From a virus: 64,000 bases of DNA. The notes beneath the pieces were generated by a model. That model made no database searches. It saw only the letters and a list, made by a program, of their open reading frames with translations, and was not told the origin of the DNA. A program made the translations under genes and the position numbers. The stretch covers positions 1 through 64,000 of the IMG/VR virus record IMGVR_UViG_3300032242_002717, one strand, 5' to 3'. Positions within the stretch are counted from its first letter, which is position 1. Each line of letters opens with the position of its first letter. Shown in pieces: positions 2,361 to 23,066 of the stretch.

Positions 2361-2943
2361 TACCATGCTCTCATTTTGTTTCCAGTTTGTTCCCGTTTTG
2401 TTTCCAAGCCTAGATATTATGTAGGCGCGCGTAGCAATAAGCATGCCAATGCATACAAAATACCAAAAAATTGCCGAAAAATTACCTAAAACTCTAGACC
2501 CTAAAATCGCCCAGAATCGACGATTGAACCATGGGTGGATAGATTCTACCTCTTTTCCTAGACAATCGATTCTAGGGCACTTTACGGCCACTACACGAAA
2601 TATCGAATATTGTTTATGCCGGAAAAATGGTTCCATGGTACGTTATAGAATAGACCTATTTTTTCGCCAATAGTCAAACGATAGTAAAATTAAACAATAT
2701 TGCGCATGATCGACCTAGTATTGGTTATCCTAGTACTACTACAAGCATAGTATCTAATTTCCTAATACTAGGAATACGATACCATACTATAACGATAGGG
2801 ATAGTATGGATTAAAACTAGATAATACGATCCGATTATCCAATTATAGCCAATAGGTAAGTAAAGCTTTATATAAGCAATTACCTATCAAACATAGTGGC
2901 ATAACGTACACTAACGGACAATAGGTATACGATAGTACAGGTA

Positions 2944-3078
2944 AGACACAAGACTCAAGACACAAGAGGAGAGACACAAGGATACAAGAGATACAAGACT
3001 CAAGACTCAAGAGACACAAGGATGCAAGATACAAGAGATACAAGGATACAAGAGGAGAGACACAAGGATACAAGGATA
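2944..3078 (+). repeat. Purine-rich degenerate 7-9 bp tandem array (GACACAAG/GATACAAG/GACTCAA)
   Basis: Five ACAAGGAT copies at 2976, 3016, 3040, 3062, 3070. Confidence 0.95.
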
Positions 3079-3154
3079 GTGGTAGTGATAGTGGTAGAAT
3101 TGTTTAACATCATGACGATTAAAATAAGACAATATTGTCCTGTTTTCAGAAAAT

Positions 3155-3357
3155 TACTCTCGGCCTCCATGGCCTCCATGGCCTCCATGGCCTCCGGTCC
3201 TCCATGGCCTCCATGGCCTCCATGGCCTCCGGTCTTCTCGGCCTCCGGTCCTCCATGGCCTCCGGTCTTCTCGGCCTCCGGTCTTCCTGTACTCTCGGCC
3301 TCCGGTCCTCCGGTCTTCTCGGCCTCCGGTCTTCCTGTACTCTCGGCCTCCGGTCCT
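3155..3357 (-). repeat. GC-rich tandem array of GGCCTCCAT / CCTCCGGTC / CTTCTCGG units
   Basis: Seven CCTCCATGG and about nine CCTCCGGT copies. Confidence 0.95.
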
Positions 3358-3694
3358 TATTCGCCTATTTTCTAGTGCGATTAAGCAACCTACTATCGAC
3401 GGATTGCAGATTGATTACGATTCTGGGGATAGTCCCCGCCCCCCCTACCATCGGCAATGGCGCGCCATGCCATGGGGGCGGCGTAGTCTCCCCTCCGCGA
3501 TAGCAGGTAAAGTGAAATCTGCAATGGTCTTTGGTAGTATGTACTAAACGTATGTACCGTTTTTGGCGACTCGGTAGTAAAGAGCGTGCTGTATATTGGC
3601 ATGCTCTTATGCGGTCGCTGTGGCTCTGTAGCGAGCCTTAAGGATGCGTACTGGCTATTAGGACGGGTACGCCTTAGGTGGCCTTGTAGGGGCT

Positions 3695-4213
3695 TTATTG
3701 ACCTTGTGGGACATCGTATCCGAGTTCGGTCATCTTGGTGGACAGATCGATAGCTCCATCTTGGTTGACGGAGTAGACTCTTCCGACATGTCGGTTGAAT
3801 GATACGTTGCCTGTGAGCTTGACCCAGACCTGTCCTTTGTCGAGCAGGTCGCTGAGAGTCTTTGTTGCTTGTGTTGCCTTTTGTTTGTTTGGTCCGCTGA
3901 GTTCGGGTGCGTTGAACGACTCGAAGCGTACCCAGGCGTCTACGGAGACCCCGGCTTCGAGGTTGATGCGGAAGAGTGCGGTATCGCCGTCATGGATACG
4001 GATGACGGTTGCCTTGTGTGCCGGGTGCGGATCGAACTCGGGGGTGTCTGGTGGCATCGAGGCCGATACGGGCGATGGCGTGATTTGTTGGTTGGGCTTA
4101 TCTTGGGGACCGAATACGATTACGAGGATCAAGATCACCGAGACAAGGCATACCAGAAACAGGGCAGGGGCCTTCAGGTGATCGGTGAAACGAGCGCGGT
4201 CGGTGGCATCCAT
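3695..4213 (-). CDS. Thermonuclease (SNase-like) with N-terminal membrane anchor
   Basis: VIRIHDGDT, VRFESFNAPEL, FNRHVGRV motifs; hydrophobic N-terminal helix. Confidence 0.8.
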   Translation of the reverse strand: MDATDRARFTDHLKAPALFLVCLVSVILILVIVFGPQDKPNQQITPSPVSASMPPDTPEFDPHPAHKATVIRIHDGDTALFRINLEAGVSVDAWVRFESFNAPELSGPNKQKATQATKTLSDLLDKGQVWVKLTGNVSFNRHVGRVYSVNQDGAIDLSTKMTELGYDVPQGQ

Positions 4214-4338
4214 TGTTTGCCTTTATTTGAGTTGTGAAATTGCGGACTTTTCCTAGCATTATAGGCTAATCCCCTATCCAGAAAAAAAGGACTTTTGTGT
4301 CCACAATGGTCTTTTGTTACTATTTTGTTTCCAGGGTA

Positions 4339-4367
4339 TTGCCAAGTTCGTGCCGCTCTATTAGTAT
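4339..4367 (+). promoter_or_regulatory. sigma70-type promoter of the rightward accessory operon
   Basis: TTGCCA-17 nt-TAGTAT upstream of 4420. Confidence 0.65.
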
Positions 4368-4419
4368 GGGTTCGAGTTAAACGGTTCTGTCAGTTGCTTT
4401 TATTGGACTGGAGTGAGAG

Positions 4420-4749
4420 ATGCTTACAAACGAAGAAGACGAGTCCAAGAACGTGTGCGATAACTGCGGTGACGAGATGACTCTTCTTGAATCAGAAGAG
4501 GGCGGCACAACTTGCGAAGAGTGTGTTGTCTTGATGTGCAGTGACGAACAAGACTACGACGATGAAGACGACTACGAAGATGACGATGAAGACGACGACG
4601 ATGACTATGAAGACTACGATGATGAAGATGAAGACGACGAAGACGAAGATGACGACATGGAAATGTGCGACGACTGCGGGCATAGCCTCTGGACGTGCAA
4701 CTGCACATGGGCAATCTCTGATCGATTGGAGCCTGTGCTAAATGGGTGA
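4420..4749 (+). CDS. Highly acidic small protein with Cys motifs flanking a D/E tract
   Basis: GGAG RBS; ~38-residue D/E/Y tract between CxxC motifs. Confidence 0.7.
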   Translation: MLTNEEDESKNVCDNCGDEMTLLESEEGGTTCEECVVLMCSDEQDYDDEDDYEDDDEDDDDDYEDYDDEDEDDEDEDDDMEMCDDCGHSLWTCNCTWAISDRLEPVLNG

Positions 4750-4993
4750 CGACTACGAAGAGGAGACCAAAGAGAACGCAACGGCCATGTATCTTCAGTC
4801 GTGGCAATTCGTTGCCATTGTCTGGATAACAATGATTAGTTGTTCTTACGGTGTTCTCAGCATCTACTCTTGGGCGTCAGGCTCGGAGTCGCCGCCAAGC
4901 ATATTCCAGGCGTTCGCCCTGATCTGCGTTGTCATGATGTTGCTCGACGTTAAGGAAGAGATCGAAAAGATCTTGGCCCCTAACGAGAGATAG
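4742..4993 (+). CDS. Small two-TM membrane protein
   Basis: Two hydrophobic stretches; overlaps upstream stop. Confidence 0.6.
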   Translation: MGDDYEEETKENATAMYLQSWQFVAIVWITMISCSYGVLSIYSWASGSESPPSIFQAFALICVVMMLLDVKEEIEKILAPNER

Positions 4994-5000
4994 TCGCCAA

Positions 5001-5024
5001 AAAGGTCTCCGCGCGGAGACCTTT
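5001..5024. promoter_or_regulatory. 24-bp perfect palindrome AAAGGTCTCCGCGCGGAGACCTTT (dispersed motif copy)
   Basis: Direct reading; related copies at 5183, 15272, 15820, 28439, 36328, 52344. Confidence 0.8.
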
Positions 5025-5234
5025 GCAGATCTGAGCCAGGGTATGGACGCAGCGTTCGTTTAAACGAACGTAAATGGGCCTTCCTGCGACTTTGGAGGCT
5101 GTCGCCTCCTTATCATCGGGTTGAGCTTGGAGCCTCTTAAATCGAAGATTTGGGGCTTGCGTAAATTTTGAGACGATCAAAGAAACGGTCTCCGCGCTTT
5201 TGTGGAGACCGTTTGTAAGTCGAGAGGCTGAAAA

Positions 5235-5780
5235 GTGATGTCACGTGAATGCAATGATAGGTGCCAATGTTCCGTATGCAAAGAACTTGACATTGTAGAA
5301 TTAGAGGCTGAGAACACAAGACTCAAATGGGAAGCAGAAAGGCTGCGAGAAGAGAATCGCAAACTTAGAGATGCATGGCCAGAAAGCAAGACAATTAAAG
5401 AGTGGTCTTCCGTTGAGAATTCCATTTACGTCACAACGATAGGCAACTTTTTTTCTTACCCTGATTGCCGGTTGTATGGCACTTGGGATGAAGCGGTTAA
5501 TGCAGCAGCAGAGATTACTCCAAGCAAAGAAGAGGCGGGAATATCGAGCGTAGCCGATAAGCTTCGAGAAGAATTGGTCGCTGCACATAAAGAAATAGGA
5601 CTTGTCCGCCAAAGCGCAGGGCAACTCATACTTTATGTGGCGTTGGCACGTTTGGATATGAATGACATGCGTGAGGACATAAGCAACATGTACAACGAAA
5701 ACAAGGAACTTGCTGCAAGGTGTGAGCGTCTTGAGACTGAAAACAAAATTCTTAGGGATGCATTCGAGTGCGTTGGCTAA
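5235..5780 (+). CDS. Modular coiled-coil hypothetical protein (RKLRDAWP module)
   Basis: N-terminal CxCxxC; module shared with 12031-12342. Confidence 0.7.
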   Translation: MMSRECNDRCQCSVCKELDIVELEAENTRLKWEAERLREENRKLRDAWPESKTIKEWSSVENSIYVTTIGNFFSYPDCRLYGTWDEAVNAAAEITPSKEEAGISSVADKLREELVAAHKEIGLVRQSAGQLILYVALARLDMNDMREDISNMYNENKELAARCERLETENKILRDAFECVG

Positions 5781-19637: not shown

Positions 19638-22600
19638 ATGGCAGACGACCAACTAACGCAAAAACAGAGAGCATTAGCAGAACTTGAGCTTCGTCGTCGG
19701 GAGACGATCAAGAATCTCGGTCCTGTTTTTGATTGGTATGGAAAACCGTGTTTTTGCAAAGAGTATGATGCGGAAAAGCAGAATTGCAAAAAGCATCCAA
19801 GAGCATTGCCTCATCAAAGGCCACCTGATGGAATTGATTGGCTAACATGGATGATGCTTGCCGGTCGATCAAGCGGAAAAACCCGAGCGTCCGCTGAGTG
19901 GATTCGCTACAAGGTTGAATCTCATGCAGCAAAAGGCGAGCAGATAAGAATTGCGCTGGTGAACGAGACGGTTAGTGAAGTTCGTCGAGTGCAAATCGAG
20001 GGTGCATCGGGATTGTTGGCGGTATCTCCGCCTTGGTTTATGCCCGTCTATATACCTTCAAAAGCTGAAGTTGTATGGCCCAACGGATCTGTGGCTTACA
20101 TATTTTCAGGCGAACAGCCAGACCAACTCCGAGGACCGCAACATCACTATGCATGGTGCTTGCCTGGGTGGACTCAAGTCCTTATGGGCGATGGCACGGA
20201 AAAGCCAATCTCTGACGTTGCCATCGGCGATAAGGTGATGACAAGAGCCGGTGCAAGGACGGTTACGGCATCAATGATGACTCGTCGTTCGGCTCAATGT
20301 CTGACTATGACTTTATCAGATGGAAGAACCCTGACGGCGACCGCAGAACATCCTGTTTACATCGAAGGTCGTGGATTTGTTCCTCTTGGGCAATTAAAAC
20401 CAGGAATGCTTGTATGTGCGATAGATGCATCGTTCACGATGGAGTCTCTTATCACGTCTGGGCAAAAGGATACTACGAGACAAGAATCCGACTTCATCGT
20501 GTCATATGGCAGCAAGCATTTGGGCCAATCCCCAAGGGATTTGACGTCCACCACAAGAACGGCAACAAACTCGACAATCGAATTGAAAACCTTGAATTGC
20601 TTCTCAAGGCAGAGCATAGCAGATACCACTTTGCCATTCATATCACGCCCAACGTCAGAAAAAAAGCGGCAGAAAGATCAGTTGCCAAAATGCATCAAAG
20701 GCGGAATGCCAACGAACAAGTCGTTCGTATTTGTGCGATGTGCAAAGGCGAGTACACTAGCAGGTCTTTTACGCCATCTGCTTTCTGCTCGTCGCCATGC
20801 GTGGAAAAAGCAAGGTCTGGTGGATTCGCAGGCGAAAGCAGGATTTGCTCGCATTGCGGAGCGACTTATACAGCATACAGGAGATGCCACAAGTATTGCT
20901 CAAAGAATTGCAACAACCGTGCATCGCAAGTGCGATATGCGAATAAGGAATCGCTTCTCAAGACAGTTAAATGCGAACAATGCAGCAAAGAGTTTGACAG
21001 CAGGCGAATTAACGCAAGGTTCTGCTCAAGACCTTGTTCCCTTAACTACCACGCTCGAAATTCAAAGCGTACAACCTTGTCGGACGCTACTAGACGTCTA
21101 CGATCTAACGGTTGACAAAGAACACGAATTTTTCGCAAACCGTTTACTGGTAAGGAATTGCGATGAATTGTGCCTAACTCCAGACACCATAATAACTTGC
21201 GCCGATTTTGATAAGCCGATATCTCAAGTAGTTCCAGGCGACATGGTGTTGACTCGTGCTGGTTATCGGCCAGTTGTTGCAGCCTGGAAAACAACAGATT
21301 TAGCCGTTGTGTATCGCCTGACAGCAGACGATGGAAGTTTCATTGTTGGCACTGCCGGGCATCCTGTGTGGGTTGAGGGTGAAGGATGGGTTCCATTAGC
21401 GAATGTGAAGCCGGGCAGCAGACTGAGAAGCCTGACCTCATGCCGTGCGTTGTCTGGGGAGGTCGTCGATGGTGGCTCAATGGCCCATACTACATGTCAC
21501 GAGAAGGAAAATTGCTTCATAGGGCGATTTACGCAGAACATCATGGGCCAATCCCGAAGAACATGGACATTCACCATAAAGACTTTTGCAAAACTAATAA
21601 CGCAATTGAAAACCTTGAGGCGCTTACGAGAAGTGATCACCTCAAGTCTCATAGGATCGTTGGCTGGCCAGGTCCACCAAAGAAAGAGCTTGAACGCAGG
21701 TTCCGGCCTTGGCATTGCCGAGAGCCTGTTTCGTATACATGTAAGTGGTGCAACAAACAGTTTGTCAGCAAAGCTACATATGCATACTACTGCTCCAAAG
21801 AATGCAGAAATAGGTACGTCTGGCACATTGGCACAGATAGCGGGCCTTCAGCCAAGTCAAAGCGAATTCGAGGCAAGATATCTGAGGGAACTCGAAAGCC
21901 ATACAAAACAAAGAAACCAGAAGGCTGGAAGCCAAAAGAGAGGCCGGTCAAGCCTTTGCCTGAGTGCGTTATCTGCAAAACACAGTTTGCGGCCAAAGAC
22001 AGTCGCGGCGTTACATGCGGTTTTGAATGCGGGTGGTCACTACGAAAAAAGCGTTGGGCCGAGAAGCGTGAGCGTGGAGAGGCTTCCCGAAAGAAGTCCG
22101 GTGTATAACATTGAGGTCGAAGGGGAACACGAGTATTTCGCCAACGGTATCCTAACTCATAATTGCAAATGGTCAAAAGCCCAAGCGCAGGTTTGGGATA
22201 ATCTTCTTCTGGGCATGCGTCTTGGCAATAATCCTCAAATTGTTGTGTCTACTACGCCCCAGCCAACGCCAACCCTCCGGGCCATAATTGCAGACAAATT
22301 TACTAAAATATCGAAAGCTTCTACCTATGCCAACCGAAACAATCTTCCAGAAAAGTTCTTTGAAAGCGTAGTAAACAAATACGAGGGTACGAGAATCGGT
22401 CGCCAGGAGTTACATGCTGAGGTTTTGCTTCAGAATCAGAATGCTCTTTGGAATCAAGCTCAAATCGATTCTTTGCGAGTCAGGTCTGTTCCCTATGGGG
22501 TCGAACTTAAAAGGATAGCGGTTGGAGTAGACCCTGCTGGCAAAATATCGGAGATGGCAAAGTTTGTTCATGGCATGCCAACGGAGTCTGGATCGGGCGA

Positions 22601-23066
22601 CGAGGCGGGTGTCGTGGTAGCTGGACTTGGCACTGATGGGCACGGATATATTTTGGGCGACCATTCTACAGGCGGGTCTCCTTCGTCTTGGGGAAAGGCT
22701 GTAGGCGAAGCTTACCATAGGCATCAGGCCAACGTGGTTGTCTGGGAGTCTAATCACGGTGGCGATACGGTGCGAGATGTGATTCTAACGGTCGATCCGA
22801 ACATTGTTCAAAAGCGAGTTCATGCTAGTCGGTCCAAGTACGTTCGGGCCGAGCCTATTGGAGCATTATCTGAGCAAGGCAAAATTCACATAGTCGGCGA
22901 ACTACCACAACTCGAATCTGAAATGTGCGAGTTTGAGCCAGGTGGACCGTCTCCAAACAGGCTCGATGCAATGGTGTTTGCTCTTACAGACCTCATGATT
23001 CAGATCGAAGAAGAAGACAAACAAGAGCTTCCATTTAACAGAATTAGCATCAAGGGGCTTTTTTAA
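19638..23066 (+). CDS. terL: Terminase large subunit precursor with two inteins (mature ~477 aa)
   Basis: Walker A GRSSGKT; spliced Walker B AW-CDEL-CKW; coupling STTP; nuclease VGVDPA...SPNRLDA. Confidence 0.95.
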   Translation: MADDQLTQKQRALAELELRRRETIKNLGPVFDWYGKPCFCKEYDAEKQNCKKHPRALPHQRPPDGIDWLTWMMLAGRSSGKTRASAEWIRYKVESHAAKGEQIRIALVNETVSEVRRVQIEGASGLLAVSPPWFMPVYIPSKAEVVWPNGSVAYIFSGEQPDQLRGPQHHYAWCLPGWTQVLMGDGTEKPISDVAIGDKVMTRAGARTVTASMMTRRSAQCLTMTLSDGRTLTATAEHPVYIEGRGFVPLGQLKPGMLVCAIDASFTMESLITSGQKDTTRQESDFIVSYGSKHLGQSPRDLTSTTRTATNSTIELKTLNCFSRQSIADTTLPFISRPTSEKKRQKDQLPKCIKGGMPTNKSFVFVRCAKASTLAGLLRHLLSARRHAWKKQGLVDSQAKAGFARIAERLIQHTGDATSIAQRIATTVHRKCDMRIRNRFSRQLNANNAAKSLTAGELTQGSAQDLVPLTTTLEIQSVQPCRTLLDVYDLTVDKEHEFFANRLLVRNCDELCLTPDTIITCADFDKPISQVVPGDMVLTRAGYRPVVAAWKTTDLAVVYRLTADDGSFIVGTAGHPVWVEGEGWVPLANVKPGSRLRSLTSCRALSGEVVDGGSMAHTTCHEKENCFIGRFTQNIMGQSRRTWTFTIKTFAKLITQLKTLRRLREVITSSLIGSLAGQVHQRKSLNAGSGLGIAESLFRIHVSGATNSLSAKLHMHTTAPKNAEIGTSGTLAQIAGLQPSQSEFEARYLRELESHTKQRNQKAGSQKRGRSSLCLSALSAKHSLRPKTVAALHAVLNAGGHYEKSVGPRSVSVERLPERSPVYNIEVEGEHEYFANGILTHNCKWSKAQAQVWDNLLLGMRLGNNPQIVVSTTPQPTPTLRAIIADKFTKISKASTYANRNNLPEKFFESVVNKYEGTRIGRQELHAEVLLQNQNALWNQAQIDSLRVRSVPYGVELKRIAVGVDPAGKISEMAKFVHGMPTESGSGDEAGVVVAGLGTDGHGYILGDHSTGGSPSSWGKAVGEAYHRHQANVVVWESNHGGDTVRDVILTVDPNIVQKRVHASRSKYVRAEPIGALSEQGKIHIVGELPQLESEMCEFEPGGPSPNRLDAMVFALTDLMIQIEEEDKQELPFNRISIKGLF
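20157..21158 (+). mobile_element. Intein 1 (334 aa)
   Basis: Block A CLPGWTQV, block B TAEHPV, block F VYDLTV..HEFFAN, ends LVRN before Cys+1. Confidence 0.92.
20414..21115 (+). CDS. HNH endonuclease with three Zn-finger repeats, overlapping intein 1 in the -1 frame
   Basis: RLHRVIW...DVHHKNGNKLDNRIENL; CxxC..F/YCS..C x3; AGGA 8 nt before ATG 20414 (ORF open from 20297). Confidence 0.88.
   Translation: MCDRCIVHDGVSYHVWAKGYYETRIRLHRVIWQQAFGPIPKGFDVHHKNGNKLDNRIENLELLLKAEHSRYHFAIHITPNVRKKAAERSVAKMHQRRNANEQVVRICAMCKGEYTSRSFTPSAFCSSPCVEKARSGGFAGESRICSHCGATYTAYRRCHKYCSKNCNNRASQVRYANKESLLKTVKCEQCSKEFDSRRINARFCSRPCSLNYHARNSKRTTLSDATRRLRSNG
21171..22163 (+). mobile_element. Intein 2 (331 aa)
   Basis: Block A CLTPDT, block B TAGHPV, block F VYNIEV..HEYFAN, ends THN before Cys+1. 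Confidence 0.93.
21386..22108 (+). CDS. HNH endonuclease with Zn-finger repeats, overlapping intein 2 in the -1 frame
   Basis: LLHRAIY...DIHHKDFCKTNNAIENL; two CxxC..C..C fingers; GAGG 7 nt before ATG 21386. Confidence 0.88.
   Translation: MGSISECEAGQQTEKPDLMPCVVWGGRRWWLNGPYYMSREGKLLHRAIYAEHHGPIPKNMDIHHKDFCKTNNAIENLEALTRSDHLKSHRIVGWPGPPKKELERRFRPWHCREPVSYTCKWCNKQFVSKATYAYYCSKECRNRYVWHIGTDSGPSAKSKRIRGKISEGTRKPYKTKKPEGWKPKERPVKPLPECVICKTQFAAKDSRGVTCGFECGWSLRKKRWAEKRERGEASRKKSGV

Follow-up and report, generated by a model that had tools for sequence, protein, structure and literature searches.

How did two inteins come to lie four residues apart inside one Walker B motif, and what does each mean for the homing and splicing of the other? 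The question is raised by terL, the gene for the large terminase subunit, of an uncultured phage that is represented by a linear IMG/VR virus record of 87,401 bp (IMGVR_UViG_3300032242_002717, CheckV completeness estimate 72%). Positions 1 to 64,000 of this record form the window, the whole 64,000-nucleotide stretch of DNA that was analyzed here. Multi-intein genes are known, and mutual interference in homing has been demonstrated for neighboring inteins. At a spacing of four residues, each intein supplies the immediate flank of the other, in the DNA during homing and in the protein during splicing. Such a locus opens the questions of how much flank an HNH homing nuclease needs, whether neighboring inteins help or block each other, and whether two Hint domains can splice at all when they are tethered to each other. 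We found that the arrangement of two inteins four residues apart inside the terL Walker B motif is real, rare, and recurrent, and that it is best explained by two independent invasions of an insertion hotspot rather than by a co-adapted pair.

Two inteins flank a four-residue extein in the terL precursor

The features of the terL precursor and of its two inteins, all on the + strand, are as follows.

19638..23066, + strand: terL precursor, T4-type terminase large subunit with two inteins, 1142 aa
19638..20156, + strand: N-extein, 173 aa; its 3' end encodes the Walker B β-strand residues HHYAW (20142-20156)
19863..19883, + strand: Walker A/P-loop GRSSGKT, which the family profile aligns to gp17 SRQLGKT
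20157..21158, + strand: intein a, aa 174-507, 334 aa, CLPGW...LLVRN, then the +1 Cys
20414..21115, + strand: HNH_3 endonuclease ORF 1 in intein a, frame +2, 72.5 bits, three Cys4 fingers
21159..21170, + strand: extein C-D-E-L (TGC GAT GAA TTG), aa 508-511, 12 bp
21171..22163, + strand: intein b, aa 512-842, 331 aa, CLTPD...ILTHN, with +1 Cys 843
21386..22108, + strand: HNH_3 endonuclease ORF 2 in intein b, frame +2, 55.5 bits, two Cys4 fingers
22164..23066, + strand: C-extein, 300 aa plus stop, CKW at its start, RNaseH-like nuclease domain
22248-22259, + strand: motif C, STTP, in the C-extein, which the family profile aligns to gp17 TTTP

When the precursor was scanned against Pfam, residues 72-174 matched Terminase_6N (PF03237, 50.6 bits) and residues 982-1097 matched Terminase_6C (PF17289, 30.4 bits), with two Hint/Intein_splicing stretches in the intervening part; the terL ORF also matches PHROG families of the terminase large subunit. 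The gene sits in an intact, normal packaging and head module, with the genes for portal, scaffold, and major head protein downstream. Excision of both inteins is predicted to leave a TerL of 477 aa, the usual length for the family.

Each residue of the CDEL extein has a role: the Cys is the +1 residue of intein a, the Asp is that of Walker B, the Glu is catalytic, and the Leu is the -1 residue of intein b. The boundaries of the inteins and of CDEL, as drawn in a first-pass annotation of this DNA, are exact by coordinates and translation, and relatives with a single intein show the same junctions, namely ...AW/C...HN/CDEL-A-x-W at site a and ...CDEL/C...HN/C-[KAS]-W at site b (slashes mark the intein ends). 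In addition, a 24-kb contig (X1) from the probable source run contains the whole double-intein stretch in identical form, with the allele assembled at 11.6x, and the junction between the N-extein and intein a is bridged also by a contig from a second sample. No joint of an empty site was present in these assembled contigs, an absence that carries no weight.

CDEL is the Walker B motif of a T4-type terminase

The first-pass annotation had placed CDEL at Walker B and had named alignment to intein-free terminases as the test of that placement. Of 80 IMG/VR relatives retrieved by C-extein similarity, 79 span the motif and none of these 79 has an intein there; the consensus of the intein-free IMG/VR relatives is RGPQHDxAW-[CAVGTI]DEL-[AC]xW. 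A profile of 30 intein-free relatives matches T4-type gp17 (3ezk_A, E = 2.6e-6; also 2o0h and 3cpe), pairing the family's "WcDEl" with "YIDEC" of gp17 and thereby D-E with D255/E256, the aspartate of Walker B and the catalytic glutamate, respectively. The register was confirmed by the 2o0h chain, which has E-D at the D255/E256 positions. A phmmer search of the PDB with one intein-free relative gave no match, and gp17 was reached by the family profile alone.

By this alignment, the insertion point of intein a is within the Walker B strand, where it separates the equivalents of gp17 Y253 and I254, and intein b is inserted between those of C257 and A258. The features of a T4-type terminase are all present, including Walker A (GRSSGKT), motif C (STTP), the nuclease domain, and, after splicing, Walker B (YAW-CDE), which the family profile pairs with MIYIDE of gp17. 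Since CDEL is Walker B, packaging would need both splicing reactions, as the annotation had argued: the ..HHYAW strand would have to be joined to the catalytic D-E and to the rest of the ATPase.

Both inteins have most or all elements of class 1 Hint domains

Intein a contains a nucleophile (Cys174), block B (TAEH, residues 235-238), a terminal Asn, and a +1 Cys, and the corresponding elements of intein b are Cys512, TAGH (residues 572-575), and a C terminus reading ...YFANGILTHN, which gives the junction THN/C. PF14890 (Hint/Intein_splicing) scores 55.5 bits on the precursor, above its cut-off of 35.8; when each intein is scanned alone, the scores of 30.7 and 32.6 bits fall under this cut-off because of the long linker. 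The Hint assignment of both inteins is supported by an alignment with about 90 family inteins. Judged by these elements, inteins a and b are probably class 1 Hint-domain inteins, for which splicing is predicted. They are 28% identical to each other, and their HNH proteins are 37% identical. The GC and GC3 of both inteins are no different from the phage background, which gives no clue to which of them arrived first.

The main doubt about function concerns the C terminus of intein a (21144-21158), which reads ...FFANRLLVRN versus a consensus of FFANGILVHN and keeps the Asn and the +1 Cys (VRN/C). Among the 90 TerL inteins of the family, intein a alone has Arg in place of the penultimate His, and Arg also replaces the conserved Gly. 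Asn cyclization, and with it the C-terminal step of splicing, may be slow or defective in this intein. Some inteins, however, splice without a penultimate His.

An AF2 model of the precursor was confident over the exteins, the N-lobe of intein a, and the C-lobe of intein b. The alignment depth was 0-3 rows over the C-lobe of intein a, CDEL, and the N-lobe of intein b, and the modeled geometry of the junction is uninformative because the alignment is almost empty there. In the MAFFT re-alignments that were made for folding, every single intein was registered on the intein b half.

The putative homing nucleases are encoded by separate ORFs in frame +2

Each HNH nuclease is a separate ORF that lies over the intein linker, outside the intein frame. 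Both ORFs cover nearly the full length of the HNH_3 profile (PF13392, cut-off 24.8), and PHROG HNH endonuclease families match both of them; a phmmer search of the PDB with HNH1 gave no match. The longest form of HNH ORF 1 begins at 20297, and its likely start is the ATG at 20414, which is preceded by AGGA and 8 nt; the ATG of HNH ORF 2 at 21386 is preceded by GAGG and 7 nt. Over the HNH ORFs, the intein frame reads like an out-of-frame translation and contains 0 stops, while the third frame contains 13 and 20. Synonymous resampling yielded an intein frame free of stops in just 0.13 and 0.07% of trials (P = 0.0013 and 0.0007).

A nuclease ORF in frame +2 is also found in related inteins. Among 80 IMG/VR inteins found by their C-terminal motif, 70 have an HNH ORF, always in frame +2 and at many host-gene sites; the remaining 10 are mini or partial inteins, and frame +2 thus holds for 70 of 70 full-size ones. 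The related HNH ORFs usually start with an ATG 250-290 nt into the intein, just past a stop in that frame, and terminate 43-70 nt before the intein end. In many relatives (loci L084-L159), GGTGAT(ATAAT) is present ∼10-20 nt upstream of the HNH ATG; this GGTGAT is Shine-Dalgarno-like and doubles as the Gly-Asp codons that end the Hint N-lobe. For three further relatives (P0013, P0014, and P0002), the frame of the HNH was inferred from the protein "shadow" alone.

After the catalytic domain, HNH1 (20414-21112) has three and HNH2 (21386-22105) has two C-x2-C...C-[SG]-x2-C fingers. These Cys4 fingers are probably DNA-reading modules that determine which target each nuclease recognizes. If the nucleases cut the intein-less allele site-specifically, this would fit, as indirect evidence, both the scattered distribution of the inteins on the extein tree and the lower silent divergence of intein b that are described below. 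No internal copy of the homing site that might serve as an operator-like element was found at ≥13/16 matches, a level that was reached by chance in 13 of 50 shuffles.

The Walker B segment is a frequent site of intein insertion, and double occupancy is rare

A total of 278 non-redundant TerL relatives were classed by their break points against the intein-free profile. For a census of occupancy, we used the best 150 cluster representatives at 50% identity, chosen by C-extein alone, of which 127 span the motif. Cluster representatives may over-sample long intein-bearing proteins, and the following occupancy fractions are upper estimates (compare 0 of 79 among the IMG/VR relatives).

No intein at Walker B: 87 of 127 representatives
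Site a occupied: 20-21 of 127
Sites just upstream of a occupied: 7-8 of 127
Site b occupied: 8 of 127
Site c (+1 Ser, one residue downstream of b) occupied: 2 of 127
Unclear state: 1 of 127
Sites a and b both occupied: 1 of 127, the window itself

By the same upper estimate, ∼30% of the cluster representatives carry an intein somewhere in the Walker B segment. Within 13 codons there are at least seven insertion points, which lie after Q, QH, QHD, QHHR, W (site a), DEL (site b), and DELA (site c). Two intein lineages thus make use of at least seven insertion points within a single short ATPase motif. A tabulation of both sites in related terL genes, which the first-pass annotation had proposed as a check, thus shows that singles are common and doubles are rare. 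The empty, a-only, b-only, and double alleles found in nature constitute a test system for the effects of a neighbor on homing and splicing.

All searches together yielded four doubles, and the extein between the inteins is four residues long in each.

Window: inteins of 334 + 331 aa, extein CDEL
L105: inteins of 331 + 127 aa, extein CDEI
P0013: inteins of 269 + 239 aa, extein CDEI
P0014: inteins of 240 + 124 aa, extein CDEL, with two more inteins upstream

This CDE[LI] double arrangement was found in three unrelated datasets. P0014 (1244 aa, Logan assemblies) has four inteins, namely a P-loop mini-intein, a second large intein, a, and a mini b; P0193, its cluster mate of equal length, is present on 7 contigs. 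When IMG/VR and the JGI metagenomes were scanned with the back-translated pattern N-G-x-x-x-H-N-C-D-E-x-C, which cannot match the window's own Arg-Asn junction, the sole double found was the L105 contig again. In IMG/VR, the same scan identified three a-only alleles in which the +1 position of site b is already Cys. This Cys (DEL-C-[AK]W) is a common polymorphism where intein b is absent, as in L210, L211, and L212 and in many intein-free loci, among them L011, L030, L047, and L069. In b-less alleles it may be a trace left by inteins since lost, or it may make the allele ready for invasion.

Inteins a and b belong to different lineages

The splicing lobes of 90 TerL inteins gave a tree with a deep split (SH-aLRT 97 for either side), which separates the inteins of site a and the upstream sites from those of site b, site c, and C-terminal-domain sites. 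All four doubles contain one intein from each side of this split. The nearest relatives of the window's inteins a and b on this tree are different, and all of them are singles. The a inteins of P0013 and P0014 are related to each other, and so are their b inteins. On the extein tree, at least 34 changes are needed at site a for 42 occupied rows and at least 18 at site b for 19, and the four doubles lie apart, as four separate events. No association between the states of sites a and b was detected on the extein tree in a test that is low in power.

The nearest relatives of the window, P0046 and P0192 (the same as L162), have ∼87% extein identity to it and lack intein a. In both, intein b is a 132-aa mini-intein with splicing lobes that are 91% identical to those of the window. 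Comparison of L162 (P0192, positions 2528-5623) with positions 21448-22049 of the window shows a 597-nt in-frame deletion that corresponds almost exactly to HNH ORF 2. At third codon positions, the window and L162 have identities of 0.71-0.79 in intein b (segments compared: 21159-21446 and 22050-22163) and of 0.43-0.52 in the flanking exteins. The silent-site identity of intein b is above that of the exteins, which suggests a recent transfer between diverged phages, i.e. that intein b moved between the window and L162 lineages after their exteins had diverged. P0192 also contains a P-loop intein of LAGLIDADG type, which is absent from the window. Three intein sites thus vary between the alleles of a single phage group.

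The double P0013 has a close extein relative, L210 (about 80-85% identity), that is a-only. Since the closest relatives of the window and of P0013 are b-only and a-only, respectively, neither intein is consistently the resident or the newcomer.

Origin of the double-intein Walker B

We consider it likely that terL underwent two independent invasions, by inteins that are distant relatives within one phage intein family. Intein a would have entered the Walker B strand and intein b the position just past the catalytic Glu, leaving CDEL as a 12-bp extein; the homing nuclease of each (HNH_3 plus Cys4 fingers) would be made as a separate protein from its +2-frame ORF, and an active TerL of 477 aa would need both excisions. 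If a double is formed from an a-only and a b-only allele, the exchange would have to resolve inside the 12 bp of CDEL that the two share, and this confinement would explain why doubles are rare though both singles are common. When a double donor meets an empty allele, the nearest homology would lie beyond both inteins, and the pair would be copied together, as linked elements. The first-pass annotation had noted that homing sites are usually longer than 12 bp. This point remains useful, since it implies that a double derived from two singles would need an exchange within the 12 bp and that an existing double would move into empty alleles as a block; it does not extend to an obligate unit. At the protein level, neither intein shares its Cys1, terminal Asn, or +1 Cys with the other, and the two splicing reactions would thus be chemically independent, either order giving the same product. 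Intein a could begin splicing first, since it is fully translated ∼330 codons before intein b.

The annotation had suggested that the pair may home as one block of ∼2 kb or in one fixed order; we judge such a co-adapted pair unlikely. Although the 12-bp spacing means that repair of an empty allele from a double donor would copy both inteins, singles at each site far outnumber doubles (∼20 a and 8 b versus one double among the 127 representatives), and these singles belong to separate lineages. The intein b of two of the four doubles is a mini-intein without a nuclease, which would depend on its neighbor for homing, and the related a and b inteins of P0013 and P0014 make a shared double ancestor possible for those two; the doubles nevertheless appear as four separate events on the extein tree, and the closest kin of the window's two inteins are separate sets of singles. 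A fixed order is contradicted by the b-only state of the window's nearest relative and the a-only state of that of P0013. Co-homing of the inteins of Haloferax MCM, moreover, is inefficient and unsupported by phylogeny (PMC10643990).

That terL is dead or dying, with an intein a that no longer splices and an arrangement that is a frozen remnant, is in our view quite improbable. The penultimate Arg, unique among the 90 family inteins (FFANRLLVRN versus FFANGILVHN), and the estimated completeness of the contig of 72% are compatible with such a remnant; yet the frame of 1142 codons is unbroken, as are both overprinted HNH ORFs, the packaging and head module around terL is intact, and intein a retains Cys1, TxxH, the terminal Asn, and the +1 Cys. 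A His at the penultimate position is, as noted, dispensable in some inteins, and the allele was assembled at 11.6x, with its a junction recurring in a second sample. Tandem duplication of one intein, or an assembly artifact, is hardly credible and was rejected: inteins a and b do belong to one family with the same architecture, but they and their HNH proteins have the low identities given above, they fall in different deep clades, the CDE[LI] arrangement is present in unrelated datasets, and one contig spans the stretch. A speculative reading, which we regard as rather doubtful, treats the 13-codon Walker B segment as a landing pad shared by two lineages, whose separately translated HNHs would read opposite flanks, i.e. 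N-extein DNA for inteins of site a and the upstream sites and C-extein DNA for those of sites b and c. Either nuclease could then attack an allele occupied by the other intein, stacking the inteins 12 bp apart, and the tethering of two Hint active sites by four residues would sterically enforce an order of splicing.

Comparison with known intein systems

In an archaeal helicase with two inteins, phylogeny gave no support for co-homing, and the doubles are thought to result from invasion of singly occupied alleles (PMC10643990). Like this helicase, terL has two nuclease-bearing inteins in one essential ATPase gene, and in both genes each site is also found singly occupied. Unlike terL, the archaeal helicase contains LAGLIDADG inteins, the nucleases of which are in frame and the sites of which belong to distinct motifs, whereas the sites in the phage gene are 12 bp apart in one motif and its HNHs are separately translated. 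Among mycobacteriophage TerL inteins (Kelley et al. 2016, PMC5050341), TerL1-e lies in Walker B, and TerL1-a and TerL1-b occupy P-loop sites separated by one residue. Inteins in ATPase motifs that include Walker B, and very close alternative insertion points, are therefore common to those phages and to the window. The close sites in mycobacteriophages, however, are described as alternatives in a Terminase_1 protein (PMC5050341), and we found no mention of a gene with both occupied, whereas both sites are filled in the window, in a Terminase_6 protein. In the openly accessible literature that was searched, we found no report of two nuclease-bearing inteins only four residues apart.

The encoding of the nucleases also has parallels. 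In non-canonical inteins of actinophages, the homing endonuclease is encoded in another frame (Gosselin, Arsenault & Gogarten, bioRxiv 10.1101/2025.01.02.630785), and ShiLan has an out-of-frame HNH insertion without a splicing domain (PMC11855218). As in these cases, the nucleases of the window lie in another frame of the same strand, inside an in-frame insertion that leaves the host frame open. The same-strand case of Gosselin et al., though, is endonuclease VII-like, and HNH was reported there in frame only, whereas the inteins of the window contain HNH_3 nucleases in frame +2. In fractured genes, including a phage terminase, a free-standing endonuclease gene lies between the halves of a split intein (Dassa et al. 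2009, PMC2677866), and the window resembles these in having an independently translated nuclease gene in the endonuclease slot of the intein. The host gene of a fractured locus is divided into two ORFs, the products of which are trans-spliced (PMC2677866), whereas the terL precursor of the window is one continuous ORF.
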